The notes below the pieces were generated by a model. It searched no databases. It had not been told where the DNA came from and saw only the letters and a program-made list of their open reading frames with translations. Shown one piece after another: positions 3,063 through 53,420 of a stretch of 64,000 nt of DNA. The DNA comes from an uncultured archaeon (GTDB lineage: Archaea > Asgardarchaeota > Hermodarchaeia > Hermodarchaeales > Hermodarchaeaceae), in NCBI GenBank assembly GCA_964347045.1, contig CAYFXC010000002.1:64001-128000 (forward strand), given 5' to 3'. The position numbers and the translations under genes are program-made. The number at the start of each line of letters is the position of its first letter. Position 1 is the stretch's first letter.

Positions 3063-4817
3063 ATGAGTCTGACAACTGAAGTATCAATTTTGATTGGTGG
3101 TGAAGCTGGTGCAGGAATCTCTGCGGCTGGAATTTCACTAGGAAAAGTCTTCATGCGTGGAGGATTACATGTTTTTGGAACCGTGGATTATCCTTCCCTG
3201 ATTCGTGGTGGTCACAACTTCTACATGGTCCGTGCTAGTACGGACCCCGTGTATAACCACTGGGATACGCATGATCTCATTATTGCTCTCGATGCAAATA
3301 CGATTCAGCGCCATTGGAAAGAGCTGAAACCTGGCGGAGGCATCATCTACGATGGAGATGAAATTCCTGCTGAAAGTCCTGATCTCCCAAAAACGATCCA
3401 GAATCTATATTCAATTCCCCTCAAAACGATTGTCAAGGAAGTTCAAGGTCGAAAGGTTGTTCGTAATACCGTTGCTTTGGGTGCCGCACTCGGAATTTTA
3501 GGCTATAACATTAACATCTTGGAAGAGATGCTTCGGGATTTCTTCATTAGCAAAGGGGAAAAAGTTGTCAACATGAATGTGAATGCGGCCCGTGCGGGAT
3601 TTAACTACGCCCAAAAGCATTTTACTCAGAAGCTAAAGCAAAAGCTTGTACCTACCAAAGAGATTCAGAAAGATCGAATTTTTATTACAGGAAATGAAGC
3701 AGTTGCACTGGGTGCCATTGCTGCAGGCTGCAAATTTTATGCAGCGTATCCCATGACGCCGGCTTCACCTGTACTTCATTTTCTTGTCGCCCAAGCAGAA
3801 CGCTTTGGGATAGTGGTTATTCAAGCGGAAAGTGAAATTGCGGCCATCAATATGGCTGTGGGTGCGTCATATACCGGTGTTCGGGCGATGACTGGTACTT
3901 CCGGTGGAGGATTTTGCTTAATGACTGAAACTCTAGGCATGGCTGGTATGACCGAAACACCATTAGTGATTATGCTCGGGCAACGAACCGGACCTAGCAC
4001 AGGTCTTCCCACATACACAGCTCAAGGCGACCTGCGATTTGCGGTTCACGCTTCGCATGGTGAATTTCCTCGAGTGGTTATTGCCCCGGGTGACGTTGAT
4101 GAGTGTTACGAGTTCACAATTGAGGCCTTCAATCTCGCCGATGAATTCCAAATCCCTGTTATCCTGTTAACTGACAAGCATCTCATTGAAAGCTCCACAT
4201 CCACTAAACCGTTCATAATTGACGGCGTGGAGATTAATCGTGGTAAGCTCCTTCCCCTGTCGCCGTATTCTGAAAAAGAACCCTATTTGCGACACAAGTT
4301 GACCTCAGATGGGATTTCCCCACGTCTGATACCCGGGACCCCGGGTGCGTTAATCCATACAGATTCCGCCGTACACAAAGAAAGTGGATTTCAGGGGGAT
4401 GATTGCGAAATTACCATAAGAATGGCAGATAAACGGTTTGACAAATTGCCGAAGCTTCTGAAACGACTCAAGAAGCAACCTCTTGTTAAAATCTATGGAC
4501 CCAAAAGTGCTGACATTACCCTTGTTGGCTGGGGATCTACCAAAGGAGTCGCTCTCGAAGTGCTTCGCATCCTTAGGAAAGAGAACATCAAAGCCAATTT
4601 TTTACAAGTCGTTTATCTTAGCCCCTTTCCAACGGAGGAGGTAAAATTGGCATTAAAGGGTCAGACCTCGATTTTGATTGAGGGAAACCAAACTGCCCAA
4701 CTTGGAAGCCTAATAAAAGAACATACCGGTATCGAAATACCACGGATGGTATTACGTTATGATGGCAGGGCATTTAATCCACTTCAACTCAGCCGACAAA
4801 TCAAGGAGGAACTCTAA
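3063..4817 (+). CDS. korA: 2-oxoacid:ferredoxin oxidoreductase alpha subunit (gamma-alpha fused)
   Basis: GGEAGAG, SLIRGGHN, YPMTPAS, QAESEIAA, TSGGGF. Confidence 0.95.
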   Translation: MSLTTEVSILIGGEAGAGISAAGISLGKVFMRGGLHVFGTVDYPSLIRGGHNFYMVRASTDPVYNHWDTHDLIIALDANTIQRHWKELKPGGGIIYDGDEIPAESPDLPKTIQNLYSIPLKTIVKEVQGRKVVRNTVALGAALGILGYNINILEEMLRDFFISKGEKVVNMNVNAARAGFNYAQKHFTQKLKQKLVPTKEIQKDRIFITGNEAVALGAIAAGCKFYAAYPMTPASPVLHFLVAQAERFGIVVIQAESEIAAINMAVGASYTGVRAMTGTSGGGFCLMTETLGMAGMTETPLVIMLGQRTGPSTGLPTYTAQGDLRFAVHASHGEFPRVVIAPGDVDECYEFTIEAFNLADEFQIPVILLTDKHLIESSTSTKPFIIDGVEINRGKLLPLSPYSEKEPYLRHKLTSDGISPRLIPGTPGALIHTDSAVHKESGFQGDDCEITIRMADKRFDKLPKLLKRLKKQPLVKIYGPKSADITLVGWGSTKGVALEVLRILRKENIKANFLQVVYLSPFPTEEVKLALKGQTSILIEGNQTAQLGSLIKEHTGIEIPRMVLRYDGRAFNPLQLSRQIKEEL

Positions 4818-39373: not shown

Positions 39374-40135
39374 TTATTTTCGAGCAAGAGAAACGAGGTT
39401 TCGGCTTTTTTTCGCTAAAAAAGGGTGTCTTTGATAATCGGCAAAGAACTTGGCATGAGTAAATCCTGTCGCAAATAACGTCTTTTCCATGAGTGGCTGC
39501 GAGAGTTGGATAATGTTTTGCGCATGGGTTTTAGTTTTCCATTGGTTTTGATTTTTTATAAATCCGGTGAAGATTAATGTCGCAGCTAGCGTATTTGTGA
39601 TGGGTTCGAAGAAGCGAACAAAAATTACCTCATCTCCCGTTGAAATAGTTCCAGATTTAAGAGGAAAGAAGCGGAAATTAGAGCTTCGAATTTCCTCAAA
39701 GTTAAGAGTTTGAGTGACAAGGTGCCCCCCCTTTTTTAGGAGTGCGTGAGCACCATAAATCGTTGTATTCACTGCATCAATGGAGGGAAGAAGAGCCAGC
39801 GAATTCCCTAAACAGAGGATTAGATCAAAGGGACCTTCAACCGTTTTTGTAACCTCAGTCATATCAGCGACATGAAATTGTACGTTGACACCCATTTGTT
39901 CTGCATGACGAGTAGCTGCAGCTATCATTTTGTGACTTAGATCTAATCCGATGACTTCATGACCTTCTAATGCTAAAGCTATTGCATGACGTCCAGTTCC
40001 ACAAGCTAGGTCGAGGATTCGTACAGGTTTCTTGTTTTTAATGAGGGCTGTGAGAAAGGGGAGTTCGCGTTTTAGTCGCTGGTTCCAATCAATAGATTGG
40101 TCATAGATGAGTGCGAGTTCTTCAAAGACGGCCAT
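39374..40135 (-). CDS. class I SAM-dependent methyltransferase (glycine/sarcosine MT-like)
   Basis: ILDLACGTGRH, FDLILCLGNSL. Confidence 0.88.
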   Translation of the reverse strand: MAVFEELALIYDQSIDWNQRLKRELPFLTALIKNKKPVRILDLACGTGRHAIALALEGHEVIGLDLSHKMIAAATRHAEQMGVNVQFHVADMTEVTKTVEGPFDLILCLGNSLALLPSIDAVNTTIYGAHALLKKGGHLVTQTLNFEEIRSSNFRFFPLKSGTISTGDEVIFVRFFEPITNTLAATLIFTGFIKNQNQWKTKTHAQNIIQLSQPLMEKTLFATGFTHAKFFADYQRHPFLAKKSRNLVSLARK

Positions 40136-42331: not shown

Positions 42332-43456
42332 TTAGAAAAAGAAGGTGTCTTGTTCGTCGTCTTCAGGCTCTTCAGGCTCTTCAGGCTCTTCAGGCTCTTC
42401 AGGCTCTTCAGGCTCTTCAGGCGCTTCAAGCTCTTCGGCTGGTGTGTCCGATGCTTCTTCAGAGGTTTCGGGCTCATCAAAAATAATGGGTTCTGATGGC
42501 GTTCTAGCCTCGTCAGGTGATTCTTTAATTTCAGATGGAGGTTCTAGCTCAGACTCAACTGAAGGTTTGAGTTCGGGAGCTTCTTCTAGCTCAGGAACTG
42601 GTGGAACCGGCGGATGAGCTGTGTCAGGTGGGGTTGGTTCTTCCAACTCTTCCTTTTCAAATGGTTTCTCTATTTCGACTCTTTCGGCATTTACACCTTC
42701 GTCTTCATCTTCAAATTCAACATATGGTGTAAGCGAGATTTGACCATTCTTGACCTTGAATAAGTATAGGTGGGGTTCATAGTCGATACCCCGCATTTTT
42801 TCAATTTGACACCCAATGTGCCATCCTTCCTCATCATAAATCTTATAGAGTGCGATGACGCCATCGACGATGTGTTCAAGACGGCGTATTTCTTCTTCAG
42901 CATGCGCATCTGGAACGATTGTGTACATGAGAATATTACCATGATTTTTCTGCGCATTCATTTGATGACGCACATAATTAATGACTTCATCCGGATCTCG
43001 AGCGGAATGCAAAATTGAGGTTAATGAATCAATCACACCCCGAACATTATCCTTAGGTTTCATTGCAAGAACGGCTTTTCGAATAACGTCATGAACATGC
43101 CGAGGATTCCCCAAGTCATGTACCATAAATCTACTTTCCGGTTTAAACTCGCCCCAACCAAAGGCGTCAGTGAACGCGTCAATTCCCACAAGGCTTTTCA
43201 CTTTTAACGCTTTGTCAACGTCAATGCCTTTTTTCTTTAATTGTTCATAAGGAAGACGAAGTGGATATTCAGTACAGAGAATGTATGCAAGCTCACCTTT
43301 CAGAAGTCCGGTGGCCAAAAAGTTGGAAACAAAAGCATCTGAACGTGTTCCTATGTCTACTTCTAACAAGATTACATAACCACGGGGAATGCCCCCACCC
43401 AATACATCATCAAGGACAGAAATGCCAATTGGTGTTTTATCTGTCATAGTCTCCAC
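42332..43456 (-). CDS. RAD55/KaiC-like protein, degenerate P-loop, acidic Pro/Glu tail
   Basis: TPIGISVLDDVLGGGIPRG, IDSLT, HIVDGVI, IEKMRG; Walker A position reads VDIGTRSD. Confidence 0.8.
   Translation of the reverse strand: METMTDKTPIGISVLDDVLGGGIPRGYVILLEVDIGTRSDAFVSNFLATGLLKGELAYILCTEYPLRLPYEQLKKKGIDVDKALKVKSLVGIDAFTDAFGWGEFKPESRFMVHDLGNPRHVHDVIRKAVLAMKPKDNVRGVIDSLTSILHSARDPDEVINYVRHQMNAQKNHGNILMYTIVPDAHAEEEIRRLEHIVDGVIALYKIYDEEGWHIGCQIEKMRGIDYEPHLYLFKVKNGQISLTPYVEFEDEDEGVNAERVEIEKPFEKEELEEPTPPDTAHPPVPPVPELEEAPELKPSVESELEPPSEIKESPDEARTPSEPIIFDEPETSEEASDTPAEELEAPEEPEEPEEPEEPEEPEEPEDDEQDTFFF
42360..42422. repeat. 9-bp tandem repeat (TCTTCAGGC)x7
   Basis: seven perfect copies encoding PEE repeats. 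Confidence 0.95.
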
Positions 43457-46013: not shown

Positions 46014-46124
46014 AAAAATGTATATAAAAGATAAGAGTAAAGGCGGACCATGGGTTGTCTAGGAGTGCACCAGAGGCCCGACCACACCGGTAGTCGAACC
46101 TCAGGTCCCGTCTTCCACCCATCC

Positions 46125-46268
46125 TCAACGAATGATTAGCCCAAGTGCCTGTTCAAGGCGTGGACCTGCGCGGGGATTAGTTCGACAACCAGCAAATAAT
46201 CGCTGTGCATTGGACATGCGAGCGACATTAGCGTAAAGACGAAGTTTCCGACCAATTTGTGTCTGCAT
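46125..46268 (-). CDS. unannotated small basic peptide, paralog A (47 aa)
   Basis: MQTQIGRKLRLYANVARMSNAQRLFAGCRTNPRAGPRLEQALGLIIR; GGAGGT SD; homologous to peptides at 52483 and 52982. Confidence 0.75.
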   Translation of the reverse strand: MQTQIGRKLRLYANVARMSNAQRLFAGCRTNPRAGPRLEQALGLIIR

Positions 46269-46320
46269 ATTGTGTTTACCTCCAAGATTGTGCTTGGTGA
46301 AAACAGCGTACGCAGAATTA

Positions 46321-46339
46321 GATATGAATCGATGGGAGC
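46321..46339 (-). promoter_or_regulatory. conserved upstream motif GCTCCCATCGATTCATATC
   Basis: 11-bp core identical upstream of all three peptide genes. Confidence 0.7.
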
Positions 46340-46943
46340 TTCACAGTACAAGAACATGCAAAAAACGACGCATTTGCGTGTAATTTTGCACAAGATGGTA
46401 CAAACTTCCGTAAAGGCATCGATAACTAATATGTCTCTGCTTCGGGTAATCCTAACCACAGCTGCCTTCGAAATTCCGCACCCACCTGACGAAATTCGGG
46501 AAGATTGAGAAAAATCATTTTCTTTCGGTGATGAACACTCAGCAAGATTTACGTTAGGATATTATTTCTCCGAAAATAGAAAACCCTGCTAAAGAGTCGC
46601 AAATACTGATGCATCCGGTCAAGGGGGCTATAAAGGTTTACAGTGAAGCCACCGATGGTTTCGGCCCATTGGGCGTCATTGTCGATCTTTCCTTCCGTGA
46701 GATATGCCGGTGAAATGAGTAAAATATCCGCAGGCATAGTTATCGACTACTAGATTCAATAGAATTAGACTAAGTTTTGTAATTTATGGAATAACTGTTT
46801 GCTTGAATAAGCGAGAAAAGTGTTGTCTGCAACTATTAACCAAAAAAGAATTGGAGAGTTGATTTGAGGTTTTGCATCTGCAAAGGAATGCGAACACTTT
46901 TCTATATCCTTAGGTCGATAAGTGGGCGGAGGGATTTGCGATT

Positions 46944-47117
46944 ATGATGCTACAATGGCCAACCTGGACTTTTACAGATTGGCCACTTGGTGACATTCCT
47001 ACTATTACACAAGCTATCGTAGTTATTCTCGTTATCGCCATCTTCATTATTGAGATTTACCGGCTCTGGAGATGCGATAATTGGTGTAGAAAGAAGAGAA
47101 GAGCTACTAGCGAATAG
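46944..47117 (+). CDS. small single-pass membrane protein (57 aa, missing from ORF track)
   Basis: MMLQWPTWTFTDWPLGDIPTITQAIVVILVIAIFIIEIYRLWRCDNWCRKKRRATSE; GGAGG upstream; TM followed by basic cluster. Confidence 0.6.
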   Translation: MMLQWPTWTFTDWPLGDIPTITQAIVVILVIAIFIIEIYRLWRCDNWCRKKRRATSE

Positions 47118-47323
47118 CAATTCATCTACAATCACAATGCCCTCTTCCCCCCTTTTTTGGAACCCGCAAGCACTTTTGAAACGAAATTCGTTACCATGAA
47201 ACTTTAGTCAGTTATTTTAGAGGGTGAAAATCGTGAATGACACCACGCATAGGCATATATATTAATATTTAATGCCTTTAGGAATTGCTTGTTTAACTCA
47301 CATGGAGTTTGGAAGGGAGTTCA

Positions 47324-49075
47324 ATGCCAGTAAGAAAAAAAGATGAATTTGAAGAACAATTTATGAGTGCCATTGTGACAATCAAATCAAAGAATAAAGA
47401 TAAGTCTCTGTTGAAAAAAGAGACGAAGGATCAAAACTTCGAACAATTTGAACCCAAAGCAGGGAAAATTGACGCTGTAGCGAAATTGCTAGAAGCAAAA
47501 GGGTTTAAGGTCCTAGCAAAAGGCCATTTCAGCATAAGCATTGCAGCATCCATTAGTCATTTTAAGAAAACCCTTGGTGCTGAATTTGAACTGAGAAAGC
47601 AACCGGCATATGGTGCATTTGGGACTCAATTGATGGGAGTTGTTCGCCCAAAAAGTTTCTATATTGCAGCTAAAAGCCCAATCGATCCAAAGCCACTGGG
47701 AAAGGATATCCTTCATATTTCAATCGGAAGACCCTATCCTGTCTTTGGGCTAGTATCTGCTGTACCTCCAAGTCCAGATTATCCTCACCTAAAGATTCCA
47801 AATGATATTCGACGTCTTTTAGGGGTTGAAGGCGTCAGTTATACAGGCAAAGGCGTTCATGTGGTAATGATTGATACTGGATTTTGGCAACCGCGAGTTG
47901 ATGCGATATGCTCGAAACCATTTCATGAATACTATAATGCAAATTTATCTCAAACGGTGCAAAGTCAAATTCGAGTTGAAAAAGTGAAATGGTGGTATGA
48001 TGACCTGCTTGATTTGGGAGGACATGGAACTGCAATGGCATCAGGATTATTTGCGGTGGCACCTGGAATTCAGTTCACAATGGTGAAAGCGGGTGGTCTT
48101 GAATTCGATTGGCCGGGAATGTTTATACACGGAGGCATCTATCTTTATGAAGGCTTTTTAAAAGTGCGAGAACTTGAGCCCGACATCATAGTCTTGTGTA
48201 CAGGCGCGCCAGAAGAGTGGATTATCAATGACCCAGAGCAACAGGCTCTAAAGGAAATGATAGAAGCTGAAATAGTTAGAGAGTTAAATCGGGGAACAGT
48301 TATCGTTGCAGCTACCGGAAATATGGATCAGACAGATGCAAATTTACCAAACCATGCACCGCTATCTTGGCCTTCATCTCATCCTGATGTCATTGCAGTT
48401 GGTGGAGCCTATCCTGAAACACCAGCTTCACCACCGTGGGTGGCTTCTGACGTAGCATCTAGTGGTAATTCAGGAATACATAGTGGACGAACAATTCCTG
48501 ATGTGTGTGGAATTTGTGGACCCACAATAATTGAAGACCGTGGTCAGCAAGGGAGAATTAGATATCCTGCGCCATATATTACAATGCCAACTCAATGGGC
48601 TGCTATCCCAGCTGATTTACACAGCGCTTTAGGTCAAACAGCTTTTGATGCTTGGCTCATTGCCAACGGCACGTCTTGTGCGGCCCCCATGGTCGCTGGT
48701 GTAGTGGCTCTCATGCTAGAAAAGGTAGGAGATAGATCAATTTTCGATCCTACGAGGCTCTCAGCTAAACTAAAAGATTTATTTAGATTGCCTGGGAGCC
48801 AAAGCGGTTGGCATTCTGCTAGCGTTCTCCGACCACGCTTGATAAAGAAGGTGCTAAAGCAAACAGCCATTGACGTTGGGATGGGAATGAGTGCGAATAA
48901 TCATCAAGCAATACCTAATTCCCATGACTTAGCTACTGGAGCAGGTGTTGTGAATGCTACTGCTGCCCTTGCGGCTGTAAATCCTAATGAGGTTAAGACA
49001 ATCATAATGCGAAAAGGGATTTCCATGTCCGATTATGCTGGTCAGCAATTTAAACCAGATTCCTTTTTTCCCTAA
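47324..49075 (+). CDS. S8 subtilisin-like serine protease, no signal peptide
   Basis: triad IDTG / GHGT / GTSCAAPMVAG, oxyanion AATGN; charged N-terminal pro-region. Confidence 0.9.
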   Translation: MPVRKKDEFEEQFMSAIVTIKSKNKDKSLLKKETKDQNFEQFEPKAGKIDAVAKLLEAKGFKVLAKGHFSISIAASISHFKKTLGAEFELRKQPAYGAFGTQLMGVVRPKSFYIAAKSPIDPKPLGKDILHISIGRPYPVFGLVSAVPPSPDYPHLKIPNDIRRLLGVEGVSYTGKGVHVVMIDTGFWQPRVDAICSKPFHEYYNANLSQTVQSQIRVEKVKWWYDDLLDLGGHGTAMASGLFAVAPGIQFTMVKAGGLEFDWPGMFIHGGIYLYEGFLKVRELEPDIIVLCTGAPEEWIINDPEQQALKEMIEAEIVRELNRGTVIVAATGNMDQTDANLPNHAPLSWPSSHPDVIAVGGAYPETPASPPWVASDVASSGNSGIHSGRTIPDVCGICGPTIIEDRGQQGRIRYPAPYITMPTQWAAIPADLHSALGQTAFDAWLIANGTSCAAPMVAGVVALMLEKVGDRSIFDPTRLSAKLKDLFRLPGSQSGWHSASVLRPRLIKKVLKQTAIDVGMGMSANNHQAIPNSHDLATGAGVVNATAALAAVNPNEVKTIIMRKGISMSDYAGQQFKPDSFFP

Positions 49076-49272
49076 TTCCACCAATTGTAAAAAAGTATCA
49101 TAGTAAAACTTGATTTTACAAAAAAGCGAGTCTATCACATGGAAGGTCTCAATCCTATCAATTAGTTTTGTCTAATCCTCCTTTATGTGGAGGGTTTCTA
49201 ATTTCTAAAAGTGGAAACTGTTGAGTAAACTTGATAATCAGATGAAGCCCATTGATAATTGAGAAGGCGATA

Positions 49273-50244
49273 ATGGATCTCATTGATAAACGTATCATAT
49301 TCGAACTACTGATTAATTACCGTACCTCGTATCAAGCCATCGCAAAAAAACTCGACCTATCTGTTAACGCTGTGAAGAAACGTTTCGAGAAGTTAAAAAG
49401 TGTGGGAATTATCCGTGGAGGTTCTCTGGTACCTTTACCTGTGATGAAAGGAACAGAAGATTGGATGGCAATATTGCGATTAAAAGAGTCTGGTGCCTCC
49501 GATGACCTTCTGGATAGCATTGGATCTCATTTATTAGTTCAATCCGGAAGTATCTTGACAGATGGAAGCATTCTCTGTTTCGGCCATTATAGTGGAGCAC
49601 AGGATCTTCAGGAGATAGGAACATTTCTGCGTCAAGTTAAGGGTGTGACATCAGTTGAATTTCATACAATTCTGAATGCCTTAGGAAAGAAGTGTGACTT
49701 AGATGATTCAGATTTGAAAGTGCTTCGTTGTCTTCGAGAAGAACCACGAATCTCAATAAGCAAAATTACTAGGAAAACAGGTATTACTCCTCGTCGAGTA
49801 AGTCAGATTCTGAAAAAATTGATAGGAGAGAATGGAGCAGAGCCTACTTTCTATGTAAATTGGGAACCACAGGGAGGAACACAACCTGATGAAGTCAGTT
49901 TCTTAATGAGAGTTCATTGGAATCTAAATGCTGGCGGTTATACTGCCTTTATTGTTCAAATTCGTCATAAAGAAGGCATAGAAGAAGGTAAAAGAATTAC
50001 TGATATTCTGACGGCTAATTATCCATTCGAGTTTTGGTATGCATATGCTTCAGCATTTGAGCCCGTGATTTTCTGTATATTCCTCGTTGAACACATTCAT
50101 GATTCGATTGATATCATTAACATGATTAAACAAGTTCCGGAGGCGATTGACGTATATCCAATCTTTGGATATCCAACAAGAGTCTTTCGTAGTCAGGTTG
50201 ATGATTACTTTGAAAGAATCTTCAAACAGCTAGATTTTCCTTGA
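49273..50244 (+). CDS. double Lrp/AsnC-type HTH regulator
   Basis: IDKRIIFEL..NYRTSYQAIAKKL and DLKVLRCLREEPRISIS, each followed by RAM-like domain. Confidence 0.85.
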   Translation: MDLIDKRIIFELLINYRTSYQAIAKKLDLSVNAVKKRFEKLKSVGIIRGGSLVPLPVMKGTEDWMAILRLKESGASDDLLDSIGSHLLVQSGSILTDGSILCFGHYSGAQDLQEIGTFLRQVKGVTSVEFHTILNALGKKCDLDDSDLKVLRCLREEPRISISKITRKTGITPRRVSQILKKLIGENGAEPTFYVNWEPQGGTQPDEVSFLMRVHWNLNAGGYTAFIVQIRHKEGIEEGKRITDILTANYPFEFWYAYASAFEPVIFCIFLVEHIHDSIDIINMIKQVPEAIDVYPIFGYPTRVFRSQVDDYFERIFKQLDFP

Positions 50245-50452
50245 AGAGTTTTATGAATAATGCTAATTACAATTGAAAATTTCAGACAGGTTTAACACGC
50301 GTACAACATTTGCTTTGTGTTCATATTTTTATGTGACCTTTGTATAGTAGGTGTGGATTCGGACCTTTCATACGCTGCGTGGGTGGTGCGGTGATGGTTT
50401 CACGACTCCATCTACTATCGATGGCAACCTAGAGTATCTAGGCGTGGTAGAT

Positions 50453-51424
50453 ATGGACGAAATTGATAAGAATATTCTTTTTGAGCTTTCTGTTAACTAT
50501 AGGGCTTCTTATCAGACTATGGCTAAAAAGTTGAATCTTTCCGTTAATGCAATCAAGAAACGAGTTCAAAAACTTAAAGATGATGGAGTAATTCGTGGGG
50601 GGGTGTTGATTCCCTCGAATGCTATGTTGGGTATGGAAGATTGGGTCGCACTTTTACGTACCGAAGATCCGATTCCCTCTGACTCTTTCTTAGATAGTCT
50701 GGGAGAGCATGAGTACGTCAATTCTGCAAGCATTTTAACGGATGGAAGCGTTCTCTGCTTCGGGAATTATCCAGGGGCTCAAGGCCTTGAGGAAATTGGA
50801 ATGTATTTGCGAAGGACACCGGGCGTGTTATCCGTGGAGTTTCATACGATTCTAACTGAACAAGGAAAAAAATGTGAGTTATCTTTATCAGAGTTGAAGG
50901 TCCTCCAATGTTTGCGTCAAGAACCACGAATGTCTATTAGTGATTTAGCTGAGAAAACACGTCTTACCCCTCGGCGCATTCGAAAAATTATCCAAAAATT
51001 GCTAGGTGAAAATGGATCTGAACCAGGTTATTATATCGAATGGGAGCCAAGAGGCGGAAGCCGAGCTAGTGAAGTAAGTTTTAGGTTAAACGTACATTGG
51101 GATTTGAATGCCGGAGGGCATACTGCATTCGTTATTATTATCTGCCATGAGGAGGGCGTTGAATCACGGTCCAAGATTGTAAAGGTGCTCAGAGAACAGT
51201 ATCCTGTGAAATTCTGGTACGCGTATGCATCAGCCTTTGAGCCGGTCTTTTTCAGTGTCTTTGTGGTCGAGCACATGCGTGAAGCAAGCCAAATTATTGA
51301 AACGCTGCGACGGACTCCAGAAGTAATCTCAGCTAATGCAATCTATGGGTATCCTACTAAGGCATTTCTAAGCCCAATTGACAAGTATTTTATGCAGCTT
51401 TTCAAAAGGCTTGAAAGTGAATAA
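50453..51424 (+). CDS. double Lrp/AsnC-type HTH regulator (tandem paralog)
   Basis: same architecture, shared blocks SILTDGS.LCFG, FWYAYASAFEP. Confidence 0.85.
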   Translation: MDEIDKNILFELSVNYRASYQTMAKKLNLSVNAIKKRVQKLKDDGVIRGGVLIPSNAMLGMEDWVALLRTEDPIPSDSFLDSLGEHEYVNSASILTDGSVLCFGNYPGAQGLEEIGMYLRRTPGVLSVEFHTILTEQGKKCELSLSELKVLQCLRQEPRMSISDLAEKTRLTPRRIRKIIQKLLGENGSEPGYYIEWEPRGGSRASEVSFRLNVHWDLNAGGHTAFVIIICHEEGVESRSKIVKVLREQYPVKFWYAYASAFEPVFFSVFVVEHMREASQIIETLRRTPEVISANAIYGYPTKAFLSPIDKYFMQLFKRLESE

Positions 51425-51450
51425 TTAACCTTTGACACCCACCAATCTGT

Positions 51451-52206
51451 TTAATGATGTTTTGATTTGCGGTAGCACCCATAACCAAATGCACTCCCGA
51501 GAACAAATGGAACCAGAAGCAAAATTGTTAATCCTATGGTTTGGAGGACTTGTTGGGATTGTTCTTCTACGGAGAAAATTCCAAGGCGTCCGAGATTGTT
51601 GGTCGTGAGTTCCCTTGTGAATTTGTAGGTATAGATAGCATGTTGAGATGCTAAGAGTTCACTGGTATGCTTGATAAGGATACCCTGGGAGTGGTGGAAG
51701 TGCCAGATTTCTCTGGAGAGTTGGTAATCGTCGTCAATTGAGAGCCAGGCAACTGAACTGGCCAGCCAACAGAGATAAGTGCCTGAAGATACGTGAGTGT
51801 ACTCAGATGAGAGGTGAAACTCACCAGAGTAGGTTGGCACTTGGATTGTATCTCCAAGATGCCATAATGAGGTGTCAACCCATAAAGGAGGTTGGAGTAC
51901 CTGATCTGTTGCAGAGCCATTGCTCAATAAAATATTCCATGTGGAGATATCGACAGAGAGTAACTGGTGTGTTGAATACTCTTCAGTGGATGAGAAATTT
52001 ACAATAAGAACGGATTCGCCAAGTTCAGGAGCCCATCGAATGATTTCGTAGCGTTCATTCCATGCATTAAAGGCATCATCAGTGATGTGATAGGTAAGTA
52101 TGAGGTCAACGGGAAAGGGCGTAGAAGCTGATTTTACGGGAAAGAAAAAACACGGGAGAATAGGAAGGCATAGAAACAAGATTATTGTTTTGCATTGACT
52201 TTTCAT
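51451..52206 (-). CDS. exported protein with signal peptide and C-terminal TM anchor
   Basis: MKSQCKTIILFLCLPILPCFFFPVKSA; C-term TM then YRKSKHH; start reassigned. Confidence 0.7.
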   Translation of the reverse strand: MKSQCKTIILFLCLPILPCFFFPVKSASTPFPVDLILTYHITDDAFNAWNERYEIIRWAPELGESVLIVNFSSTEEYSTHQLLSVDISTWNILLSNGSATDQVLQPPLWVDTSLWHLGDTIQVPTYSGEFHLSSEYTHVSSGTYLCWLASSVAWLSIDDDYQLSREIWHFHHSQGILIKHTSELLASQHAIYTYKFTRELTTNNLGRLGIFSVEEQSQQVLQTIGLTILLLVPFVLGSAFGYGCYRKSKHH

Positions 52207-52294
52207 CGTGAAGCCATTGGTTGTGTGGAATTGAAGCCCAAATAGCTTATCCTTTGAAGAAAAATGCCATTTCTTCAAAAAACCAAAAAAAATC

Positions 52295-52420
52295 CGCCGG
52301 GTCTTCATCGTTCCTTCCCCTCCATTTTGGCACTTCCCGGTCCAAGTTTGTATGGGTGGCATTGGACCTTTTTGGACAACGGATCCGGAGTTGTTGTCCG
52401 GTTACCGTGAAGACCCGGCG
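52295..52420 (-). other. structured 3' RNA element of peptide gene B1
   Basis: perfect 13-bp closing helix CGCCGGGTCTTCA/TGAAGACCCGGCG enclosing GGACAAC/GTTGTCC and GGTCCAA/TTGGACC hairpins, followed by T-tracts on minus strand. Confidence 0.65.
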
Positions 52421-52482
52421 TCAGTCAGCGTCCAAGGTCCGCGTCCCTGGTGTTGCAATGTCAATACCTGTTGTAAGCGTGA

Positions 52483-52626
52483 TTAGCGTCGTGAAGTGAC
52501 GATGGCGAAGTTGATTCGATCGCGGGGGGTGCCTTTGGGGTTCTTTGCACCTGTCACAGCGCGTTCTGTGACCGGCATTTTGGGAATGATATTTTTCTTG
52601 TGTCCGGTTTCTTTCTTATTGGTCAT
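52483..52626 (-). CDS. unannotated small basic peptide, paralog B1 (47 aa)
   Basis: MTNKKETGHKKNIIPKMPVTERAVTGAKNPKGTPRDRINFAIVTSRR; AGGTGAT SD. Confidence 0.8.
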   Translation of the reverse strand: MTNKKETGHKKNIIPKMPVTERAVTGAKNPKGTPRDRINFAIVTSRR

Positions 52627-52686
52627 TTTCTATCACCTTCCTGACGATGCAGGTCAAGTGTGTATAACCCTTAGATTGCCTATTAT

Positions 52687-52763
52687 TCGATGGGAGCTTG
52701 TCGGTGCAAAAATCCGACAAAATAATGAGAGTTGAACCATCTTTTGCACTAGTTAGTGCAAAA
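52687..52763 (-). promoter_or_regulatory. conserved motif GCTCCCATCGA plus palindrome TTTTGCACTA-N2-TAGTGCAAAA
   Basis: core at 52687-52697, 61 nt from ATG as in paralog A; perfect inverted repeat 52742-52763. Confidence 0.65.
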
Positions 52764-52802
52764 TTTAGATTGGTAACGGTTTTAGTTCGAGAAGGGGGTA
52801 AA

Positions 52803-52920
52803 CCGGGTCCGCAGAAGCTCCAGGCCAAAGGAGTCAGAAGGGTAGTAGGTCCGTTGCCGGATCGCTGCTACGCCGATCACCCGACAACGGATGGAGGCGA
52901 TTGGTGCTTGTGCAGACCCG
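52803..52920 (-). other. structured 3' RNA element of peptide gene B2
   Basis: CGGGTCTGCA/TGCGGACCCG closing helix and CCGTTGTCGG/CCGGCAACGG inner helix, G-U pairs on minus strand; shares CGGGTCTnCAC and ATCCGTTGTC with B1 element. Confidence 0.65.
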
Positions 52921-52981
52921 AGATATTAGGCTGAGAGGAGGACCGGATGGCTTTGTAGTCACCATGGGGATTCCTCACAGT

Positions 52982-53122
52982 CTAGCGTCGACTAAGGACC
53001 AGCATAACTGCGTACCGAGTGCGTGGTTTTGCAATCGGATGGGGGTTGCGGCAGCCAGCGATAGCTCGTTCAGAAGCCGACATTTCAGCGATTTTCTTGT
53101 GTTTATACTTGGATTTGGCCAT
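52982..53122 (-). CDS. unannotated small basic peptide, paralog B2 (46 aa)
   Basis: MAKSKYKHKKIAEMSASERAIAGCRNPHPIAKPRTRYAVMLVLSRR; GGAGG SD; C-terminal half of track ORF 52982..53284. Confidence 0.8.
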   Translation of the reverse strand: MAKSKYKHKKIAEMSASERAIAGCRNPHPIAKPRTRYAVMLVLSRR

Positions 53123-53200
53123 TCTCAAATCCCTCCAATTGTGTTGTCTCCGGGATTCCCGGGGAGAAACCCCGTTGCATGTGAAAGAAGGCGGCCGTTT

Positions 53201-53219
53201 GATAAGAATCGATGGGAGC
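53201..53219 (-). promoter_or_regulatory. conserved upstream motif GCTCCCATCGATTCTTATC
   Basis: 18/19 identical to 46321-46339. Confidence 0.7.
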
Positions 53220-53420
53220 CAAGAAGTGCAAATCTTCTCGAAAGAAACCTGTGAAAGATAGTTTTTTTGAACCACATTATGCAAAATTTAGCTTTAAATT
53301 AGGAAGTTTTCCGTTTGGGTTGATTTTCACTATCAGAGTTTGTGAATAAGTTTTCTTAAGATTTTTTTGGGGTGTTCTGCGAAGGCTTTTGTGAACTCGG
53401 TTATAGTGTAACCTGGTGAG

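Follow-up and report, generated by a model that had tools for sequence, protein, structure and literature searches.

We found that three short minus-strand open reading frames, here called A, B, and C, are real, selected genes of an undescribed family of basic proteins of about 46 residues, and that this family is limited to one Asgard family, Hermodarchaeota. All three lie in the window (the whole 64,000-nucleotide stretch of DNA that was analyzed). Our favored explanation, which we hold tentatively, is that A, B, and C are tightly regulated RNA-binding microproteins, with C a candidate for silencing by masking of its ribosome-binding site (RBS).

The first-pass annotation had described the three frames, their lengths, stop codons, and SD words, and all of these were recovered in the sequence. 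The 3' end of the 16S rRNA of the host family carries the anti-SD that matches the SD words of the three peptide genes. The proposed core motif, run as a regular expression over 76,152 frames of the genome, matches just A, B, C, and one further paralog. The three are weakly alike in pairs (phmmer E = 0.002 for C with B and 0.02 for C with A), and their DNA is 50-57% identical over the aligned positions. A profile of the family gives E values of 4e-21, 4e-20, and 3e-12 for A, B, and C, as compared to 0.74 for the best hit on reversed frames. The same genome encodes three further clear copies (on C13, C22, and C5), one divergent copy (on C5), and a pseudogene with three stops (on C6).

The family is carried by 18 of the 19 genomes of the Hermodarchaeota family, with up to seven copies per genome, and is absent from all 381 of the other Asgard genomes that were searched. 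The suspicion of protein-level selection was borne out by purifying selection in the related genomes: dN/dS is 0.13-0.18 in five subfamilies (B, C, E, F, and G), and the less constrained A is given in the table. N-termini are freer (0.27-0.75 in A, B, C, and F). R19, N26, and P27 are invariant, E18 is kept in 99% of members and G23 in 91%, and the median net charge is +9. The family had not been recognized from the sequence, and we likewise obtained no match for 29 members in Pfam and no family match in NCBIfam, PHROGs, PDB sequences, or ESM Atlas features. A search of 1.84 billion representatives gave only 22 matches, all of 40-88 amino acids; a pattern scan of metagenomes gave 80 chance matches, none of which code for the family; no member was found in the viral contigs searched; and we found no description of the family in the literature. 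In the predicted model (pLDDT 76), two helices are joined by an extended Gly/Pro loop, and the C-terminal helix is hydrophobic with a conserved Ala. The family is best explained as soluble, very basic microproteins with a predicted helix-loop-helix fold.

Table 1. Features of the microprotein loci, in window coordinates.
Feature	Position	Strand	Remarks
Microprotein A, 47 aa, stop TGA	46125..46268	-	orthologs in G003 and G007; dN/dS 0.43, core 0.26, n=3
Microprotein B, 47 aa, stop TAA	52483..52626	-	dN/dS 0.16, core 0.09, n=10
Microprotein C, 46 aa, stop TAG	52982..53122	-	dN/dS 0.15, core 0.12, n=10
SD of A	46278..46283	-	SD word; anti-SD present in 16S 3' end
B leader hairpin overlapping SD	52632..52655	-	SD mostly paired locally in all B copies
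14-nt leader block of C, including SD	53131..53144	-	perfect complement of small-RNA invariant loop
Promoter of A	46318..46404	-	palindromic operator 46384-46404, half site, conserved 11-mer 46329-46339, TATA-like box
Promoter of B	52678..52763	-	operator 52742-52763, half site, 11-mer 52687-52697, TATA-like box
Promoter of C	53198..53285	-	operator 53265-53285, half site, 11-mer 53209-53219, TATA-like box
3' hairpin region of A and pyrimidine tract, without P1 domain	46024..46124	-	fold z -2.07
P1-closed RNA domain after B	52296..52419	-	z -3.23; P1 covariation; RNA model R1
U tract after B RNA domain, terminator-like	52276..52295	-	
P1-closed RNA domain after C, then pyrimidine tract 52789-52798	52804..52920	-	z -3.88; P1 covariation
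Double AsnC/Lrp-type HTH regulator 1, candidate operator-binding factor	49252..50244	+	Pfam HTH_24/HTH_AsnC-type twice; co-location
Double AsnC/Lrp-type HTH regulator 2	50351..51424	+	start probably near 50453

Three features of these loci go beyond what the first-pass annotation observed: a shared promoter, a 3' RNA domain, and an antisense small RNA. Each of A, B, and C is preceded by its own promoter with a palindromic operator, from which it is predicted to be transcribed independently. The promoter profile identifies five sites in the genome, namely those of A, B, C, and two small genes that flank another double-AsnC gene. A double-AsnC regulator lies in the flank of 19 of 25 family genes with the promoter. 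Of the 47 family genes that lack the promoter, 3 have such a neighbor, as do 3.2% of random positions; these counts consider flanks only, and the related genomes are not independent.

B and C are followed by an RNA domain of about 125 nt with a covarying closing helix, P1. This helix is 95% paired and five of its pairs show double changes, which is above all shuffles and slides. The G-U pairs of P1 lie on the mRNA strand. We rejected the idea that the element is a MITE because the G-U pairs favor one strand and the changes are compensatory. The domain is missing from many members (A, E, G, and several in the second genus). Rfam gave only chance-level matches for the 3' domains and for the small RNA described below, and a likeness to ribozymes (twister, HDV) that we saw by eye is unsupported by Rfam. 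We also rejected a role as an rRNA guide (C/D or H/ACA) or as a partner of the peptidyl-transferase center, as 11 motifs fit no better than shuffles. The 3' domains do not single out the peptide leaders as partners (best rank 23 of 2362).

A separate, conserved small RNA is predicted to block the start region of C. In G000 it is encoded twice (C8, ~104634-104731, plus strand, and C5, ~39477-39578, minus strand), and its 17-mer is present in 19 of 19 genomes (control, 0). It has 33 invariant columns within a variable, covarying stem. In 18 of 28 copies, including both from G000, a bulge-helix-bulge (BHB) motif occurs in the same register, with a helix-bulge-4 bp-bulge-helix layout that encloses 80-86 nt. 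The complementarity to the C leader includes the SD itself, and the predicted duplex with the start region of C (-34 kcal/mol) ranks 2nd of 2362 start regions, with starts chosen by a simple script. Copy D and the pseudogene rank 5th. At ranks 417-1362, the A, B, E, and F leaders do not qualify as predicted targets. A C-rich loop will pair with any start region that is rich in G, as the other top ranks show.

The complementary stretch coincides with the conserved leader block in 12 C-type leaders, and one recurrent A-to-G change in the block keeps a G-U pair. An independent sample yielded a divergent C copy in which the block is also retained. We counted 7 occurrences of the 7-mer that precedes the SD core, versus 0.41 expected; two of them are the RNA genes themselves. 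A conserved and apparently single-stranded seed is complementary to a conserved RBS, as for a trans-acting, RBS-masking small RNA. Pairing of the loop with rRNA is no better than G-rich patches allow and includes no long perfect seed. The small RNA is also invariant in the second genus, where four genomes gave no leader matches, so C cannot explain its conservation. Because the seed is invariant, covariation of seed and target is not visible. The putative link from the small RNA to the leader and SD of C is new here.

In the explanation that we favor, the double-AsnC regulators would bind the operator and turn the genes on under a nutrient signal. The small RNA would probably be excised at the BHB motif and circularized. 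In C-type mRNAs it would mask the SD together with the start codon, and it would act likewise on a few other leaders that share the block. The 3' domain would be a stable, self-standing RNA module, which would make the B and C transcripts dual-function. The proteins would bind RNA, most plausibly rRNA or the ribosome, the small RNA, or the 3' domain RNAs, and would tune translation. Contacts would be made by Arg19, which never varies, by the G-x-R-N-P loop, and by the basic termini. This last step is the weakest of the proposal: as there is no homologue of known function, the argument for RNA binding is made from charge and context alone. Still, nucleic-acid or ribosome binding, which the first-pass annotation had suggested, seems the likeliest role for the peptides. 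The complete chain seems rather doubtful to us: a circular RNA produced by the tRNA-splicing machinery would silence the mRNAs of microproteins that bind RNA or the ribosome, and the transcripts of these microproteins would in turn release a second structured RNA.

Parts of this arrangement have precedents. In Methanosarcina mazei, sRNA154 and sRNA41 are examples of RBS-masking small RNAs and dual-function RNAs in archaea (PMC11456600). As in that system, we predict a trans-encoded RNA loop over an RBS, as well as transcripts that combine a small ORF with a structured RNA. In contrast, the regulator here shows no relation to the M. mazei RNAs by sequence or by Rfam, has a BHB motif and a 33-nt invariant loop, and is predicted to target a gene of a microprotein family. 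Archaeal circular RNAs can be excised at BHB motifs by EndA cleavage and ligation (PMC12558985), and our small RNA shares their layout. Unlike them, it is not an intron of a tRNA or rRNA but a free-standing gene, and mRNA leaders are the predicted pairing partners of its loop.

An alternative is that the nascent chain acts in cis: a ribosome pause at the terminal Arg-Arg-stop would control how the downstream RNA folds, is processed, or is released. The RNA domain would then be the true effector, possibly a sensor of arginine or another amino acid. The conserved last ~33 residues correspond to about one tunnel length, the distance from NP to the stop is 17-23, and the penultimate Arg is CGA in 32 of the 37 members that end in x-R-R/H/Q-stop. 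Among other Arg codons, CGA accounts for 97 of 327, and where the chain continues it is used in 6 of 24; this bias is at most a hint of stalling. Also, in B, C, and some other members the stop is followed ~51-68 nt later by the start of P1, and the F loci have a second ORF of 26-29 amino acids, similar only in its hydrophobic-RR end, that stops 63-67 nt before P1. TnaC and SpeFL are stop-codon arrest peptides in which a C-terminal segment is likewise conserved and fixed in its distance from the stop; the codon-biased terminal Arg is another likeness. Unlike TnaC and SpeFL, which share no motif with our family, the microproteins have no regulated operon downstream, and each unit is closed by a terminator-like tract. 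In particular, A is convergent with its neighbor in 3 of 3 loci, and the genes downstream of B and C vary in identity and strand. Furthermore, the RNA domain exists without any peptide gene, outlives loss of the upstream gene, and is found 4 nt after the stop of an unrelated large gene; conversely, G-type and several other members have the CGA codon without P1. The predicted two-helix fold, with invariant residues 28 amino acids from the end, suits a folded product, and the fixed spacing could be inherited. We consider this alternative unlikely.

Type I toxin-antitoxin loci such as Ldr/Rdl, Ibs/Sib, and AapA/IsoA combine paralogous small ORFs, structured mRNAs, and antisense control of translation start. 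Our genes share the first two features and, for the C and D leaders, may share the third; one copy has decayed, and the SD is hidden in a local hairpin (B) or matched by the antisense RNA (C), so the peptides might be cytoplasmic growth inhibitors silenced by antisense RNA. However, the antisense RNA is encoded elsewhere instead of opposite the gene and matches only the C and D leaders, the SD and the 3' region do not pair consistently, and the orthologs are syntenic and vertically kept. A membrane toxin, as the first-pass annotation's mention of toxins might imply, is disfavored because no transmembrane segment is apparent (the best 17-residue Kyte-Doolittle mean is at most 0.65 across 70 members). 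Overall, a toxin seems quite improbable. No better in our view is a DNA-binding or chromatin function with a helix-extended loop-helix fold, as in the HeH superfamily (Rho_N, PF07498; LEM, PF03020; SAP), which the family matches in size and predicted two-helix layout; the high basic charge would also suit such a function. A resemblance to Rho-N by eye is only a lead: the Rho_N and LEM profiles miss every copy even at E = 10, the first helix is shorter, the invariant R-x3-G-x2-N-P is not a feature of Rho_N, LEM, or SAP, and the RNA modules would be left unexplained. The 46-residue model reached Z = 3.0 at best in the fold comparisons, with no Foldseek match; Foldseek, VIA, and Atlas fold searches gave only weak rows, from which neither novelty nor absence follows.

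The hydrophobic C-terminal helix and the co-located regulators could instead indicate peptides that modulate a metabolic enzyme, or the double-AsnC proteins themselves, by protein-protein contact. Many small proteins of bacteria and archaea act in this way, and those of Methanosarcina offer a precedent (PMC11456600). But the neighboring enzymes differ from locus to locus, the E, F, and G copies lie away from regulators, and the strong positive charge suits nucleic acid better, so we rate this as improbable too. Finally, the members are short and paralogous, and 72% of them have a core Cys, as might suit precursors of secreted or modified peptides (RiPPs or pheromones), another role that had been suggested. 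This possibility is very remote, as we saw no signal peptide and no conserved genes for modification or export nearby, and all B copies have Ala in place of the Cys. A subtilase adjoins A in this genome, but it is not a recurring neighbor.

Everything described here is confined to one uncultured family, and the activity of the proteins is inferred. Within that reach, RNA-binding microproteins under this kind of control would bear on Asgard archaea, whose post-transcriptional control is almost unexplored. The analysis adds two undescribed elements, a microprotein family and a 3' RNA domain, and it names a concrete candidate target for a conserved small RNA that otherwise has no function assigned. 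If true, the use of a circular RNA by a prokaryote for antisense regulation in trans would surprise specialists in archaeal RNA.

The first-pass annotation had reported three short ORFs on the minus strand, each with a different stop codon, and we confirmed their coordinates (microprotein genes A, B, and C in the table). Their Shine-Dalgarno (SD) words also agree with the 16S 3' end of the Hermodarchaeota family. Pairwise similarity among A, B, and C is modest, and a profile built from relatives places all three more than ten orders of magnitude away from background. The annotation did not recognise the protein family, nor did any library that we searched yield a match. A profile search for homologs, which it had suggested, found 1-7 copies per genome in 17 of the 18 other genomes of the Hermodarchaeota family (the relatives that bear names are Hermodarchaeota MAGs) and gave no hit in the 381 Asgard genomes searched outside it. 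Among 1.84 billion representatives, just 22 proteins matched, all of 40-88 amino acids and without fused forms; any names they carry are "hypothetical". In the source genome itself there are six clear copies plus a divergent one and a pseudogene. In a tree, A, B, C, and the E/F copies form orthologous sets across genomes.

The selection at the protein level that the annotation had proposed is borne out: subfamilies B, C, E, F, and G have dN/dS values of 0.13-0.18, A (three sequences) has 0.43, and the core has the lowest values. R19, N26, and P27 never vary, and E18 and G23 seldom do. The proteins are very basic (median net charge +9), and none contains a segment hydrophobic enough to span a membrane. 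The AlphaFold model (pLDDT 76) has two helices (residues 16-23 and 33-44) with a G-x-R-N-P loop between them. Fold searches were uninformative for a protein of this size, and Rho_N and LEM profiles did not match the microproteins.

Locations of the features (C5 to C23 are contigs of the source genome, G000)
Feature	Location	Strand	Remarks
Microprotein A	window 46268-46125	minus	47 aa
Microprotein B	window 52626-52483	minus	47 aa
Microprotein C	window 53122-52982	minus	46 aa
Terminal codons including penultimate Arg	window 52982-52990 (C), 52483-52491 (B)	minus	CGA bias among members with this ending
Microprotein pseudogene	C6:44748-44882	minus	L102; three in-frame stops
Second ORF of F loci	C5 ~123335-123415		L003:~4335-4415; other F loci
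P1-type RNA domain without peptide gene	C23:11771-11934	plus	L136; also L137-L144, L131, L133
Stand-alone small RNA gene	C8 ~104634-104731	plus	L176
Stand-alone small RNA gene	C5 ~39477-39578	minus	L161
Stand-alone small RNA, diverged third copy	near C5 64932		L221
Small orphan gene sharing A/B/C promoter	C13:31191-31433	minus	L101; no Pfam hit
Small orphan gene sharing A/B/C promoter	C13:32797-33063	plus	L101; no Pfam hit
Orphan gene behind leader block	C13:33092-33517		141-144 aa; L206, L214, L216, L217
Subtilase	window 47309-49075	plus	Peptidase_S8
RecA/KaiC-like ATPase	window 42332-43456	minus	Glu-Glu-Pro repeats near 42370-42430

Upstream of each of A, B, and C lies a common block comprising a palindrome (TTTGCAC-N6-GTGCAAA), a half site ~50 nt downstream of it, an 11-mer, and a TATA-like box. 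Genome-wide, the promoter profile matches at five places: A, B, C, and two either side of a double-AsnC gene on contig C13. (Double-AsnC regulators have two AsnC/Lrp-type HTH units.) The orphan genes flanking that regulator encode 80 and 88 amino acids. Two more double-AsnC regulators sit between A and B. Across relatives, such a regulator is near 19 of 25 family genes with the shared promoter versus 3 of 47 without it, although these genes are not independent; for random positions the rate is 3.2%. We infer that double-AsnC regulators bind the palindrome. They form an expanded family of thirteen in this genome (300-370 amino acids), several of them clustered. The promoter palindrome of E-type copies differs from the A/B/C type. 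The subtilase between A and the regulators has a pro-kumamolisin-like N-terminus and flanks of lower GC, and is not a recurring neighbor. The window's RecA/KaiC-like ATPase has an acidic tail of tandem repeats.

About 60 nt past the stop codons of B and C begins a ~125-nt RNA domain closed by a helix (P1), with a pyrimidine tract next. P1 is 95% paired over 32 copies, with five pairs doubly changed, and its pairing and covariation exceed all shuffles and slid controls. A covariance model detected the domain in 17 genomes of the family; 42 Asgard genomes outside it gave no match, and Rfam has no entry for the domain. The peptides and the domain are separable. The A, E, and G copies lack P1; E-type copies (such as L002:4030-4136) have a conserved 3' structure of another kind, made of two hairpins (z -4.9). 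The B-type domain survives where peptide B is absent, and an orthologous set of domains with a nearly invariant core lies 4 nt past a membrane-anchored serine-hydrolase-like gene, itself downstream of a double-AsnC gene. Two loci (L137 and L139) keep this domain despite deletion of the hydrolase-like gene. We rejected pairing with rRNA as the domain's role, as complementarity was not above chance. Separately, a 23S rRNA gene (L099, G006 C60) has an insertion of about 150 nt within the peptidyl-transferase loop and a 16S rRNA gene (L104) spans 3.6 kb, which suggests several introns.

The conserved block of the C leader recurs elsewhere in the genome, and two of these sites, read on the other strand, belong to a stand-alone small RNA gene. 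The gene carries a TATA box of its own, and its RNA has a stem that varies and covaries, a loop with 33 invariant bases, and a bulge-helix-bulge (BHB) motif enclosing 80-86 nt. All 19 family genomes contain its 17-mer core (a control matches none); outside the family there are only scattered one-mismatch matches, at chance level. The loop, whose seed is invariant across copies, is complementary, without a mismatch, to 14 nt of the C leader, SD included, and a second stretch could pair across the start codon. Among 2362 start regions, that of C ranks 2nd and those of copy D and the pseudogene 5th; the A, B, E, and F leaders are not predicted targets. Across 12 C-type leaders, the complementary columns are exactly the conserved ones. 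In a second genus the small RNA is kept, and we found no leader match in four genomes there. Within the genus of the source genome, an orthologous gene for a 144-aa protein also has the block in its leader, ~27 nt ahead of the start, and the block lies before some genes for secreted proteins. In the pseudogene, the 3' domain has decayed and the leader block is still largely intact. At L207, L210, L212, and L220, the block lies in a conserved intergenic element past a terminator-like hairpin and is not followed by an ORF; this element is possibly another RNA or a sponge.

We tentatively propose, with somewhat less than even confidence in the model as a whole, that a double-AsnC regulator, probably nutrient-responsive, switches on short transcripts from which a basic microprotein would be made; those of B and C would also provide a stable RNA domain at the 3' end. 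Translation of B would be gated by a local hairpin and that of C by the small RNA. Given its charge, invariant arginine, and context, the likeliest binding partner of the microprotein is RNA or the ribosome; roles as a toxin, DNA-binding protein, enzyme modulator, or precursor are less likely.

The main rival, which we consider unlikely, is that the peptides act in cis during their translation. In its favor, the penultimate arginine is CGA in 32 of the 37 members ending Arg-Arg/His/Gln-stop, versus 30% elsewhere. Also, F loci contain a second tiny ORF (26-29 aa, with its own SD) that has only the hydrophobic-RR end in common and stops just as far from the RNA domain (63-67 nt); its selection is confined to the last ten codons (dN/dS 0.34).

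Under our proposed model, the mode of action would resemble that of archaeal RNAs that mask ribosome binding sites or have dual functions (sRNA154, PMC11456600), and the small RNA would be made circular by way of its BHB motif, as in known circular RNAs of archaea (PMC12558985). Neither the microprotein, the 3' RNA domain, nor the stand-alone small RNA belongs to a described family. What is new here is the predicted connection, via complementarity to the C leader, between the small RNA and the microprotein family.
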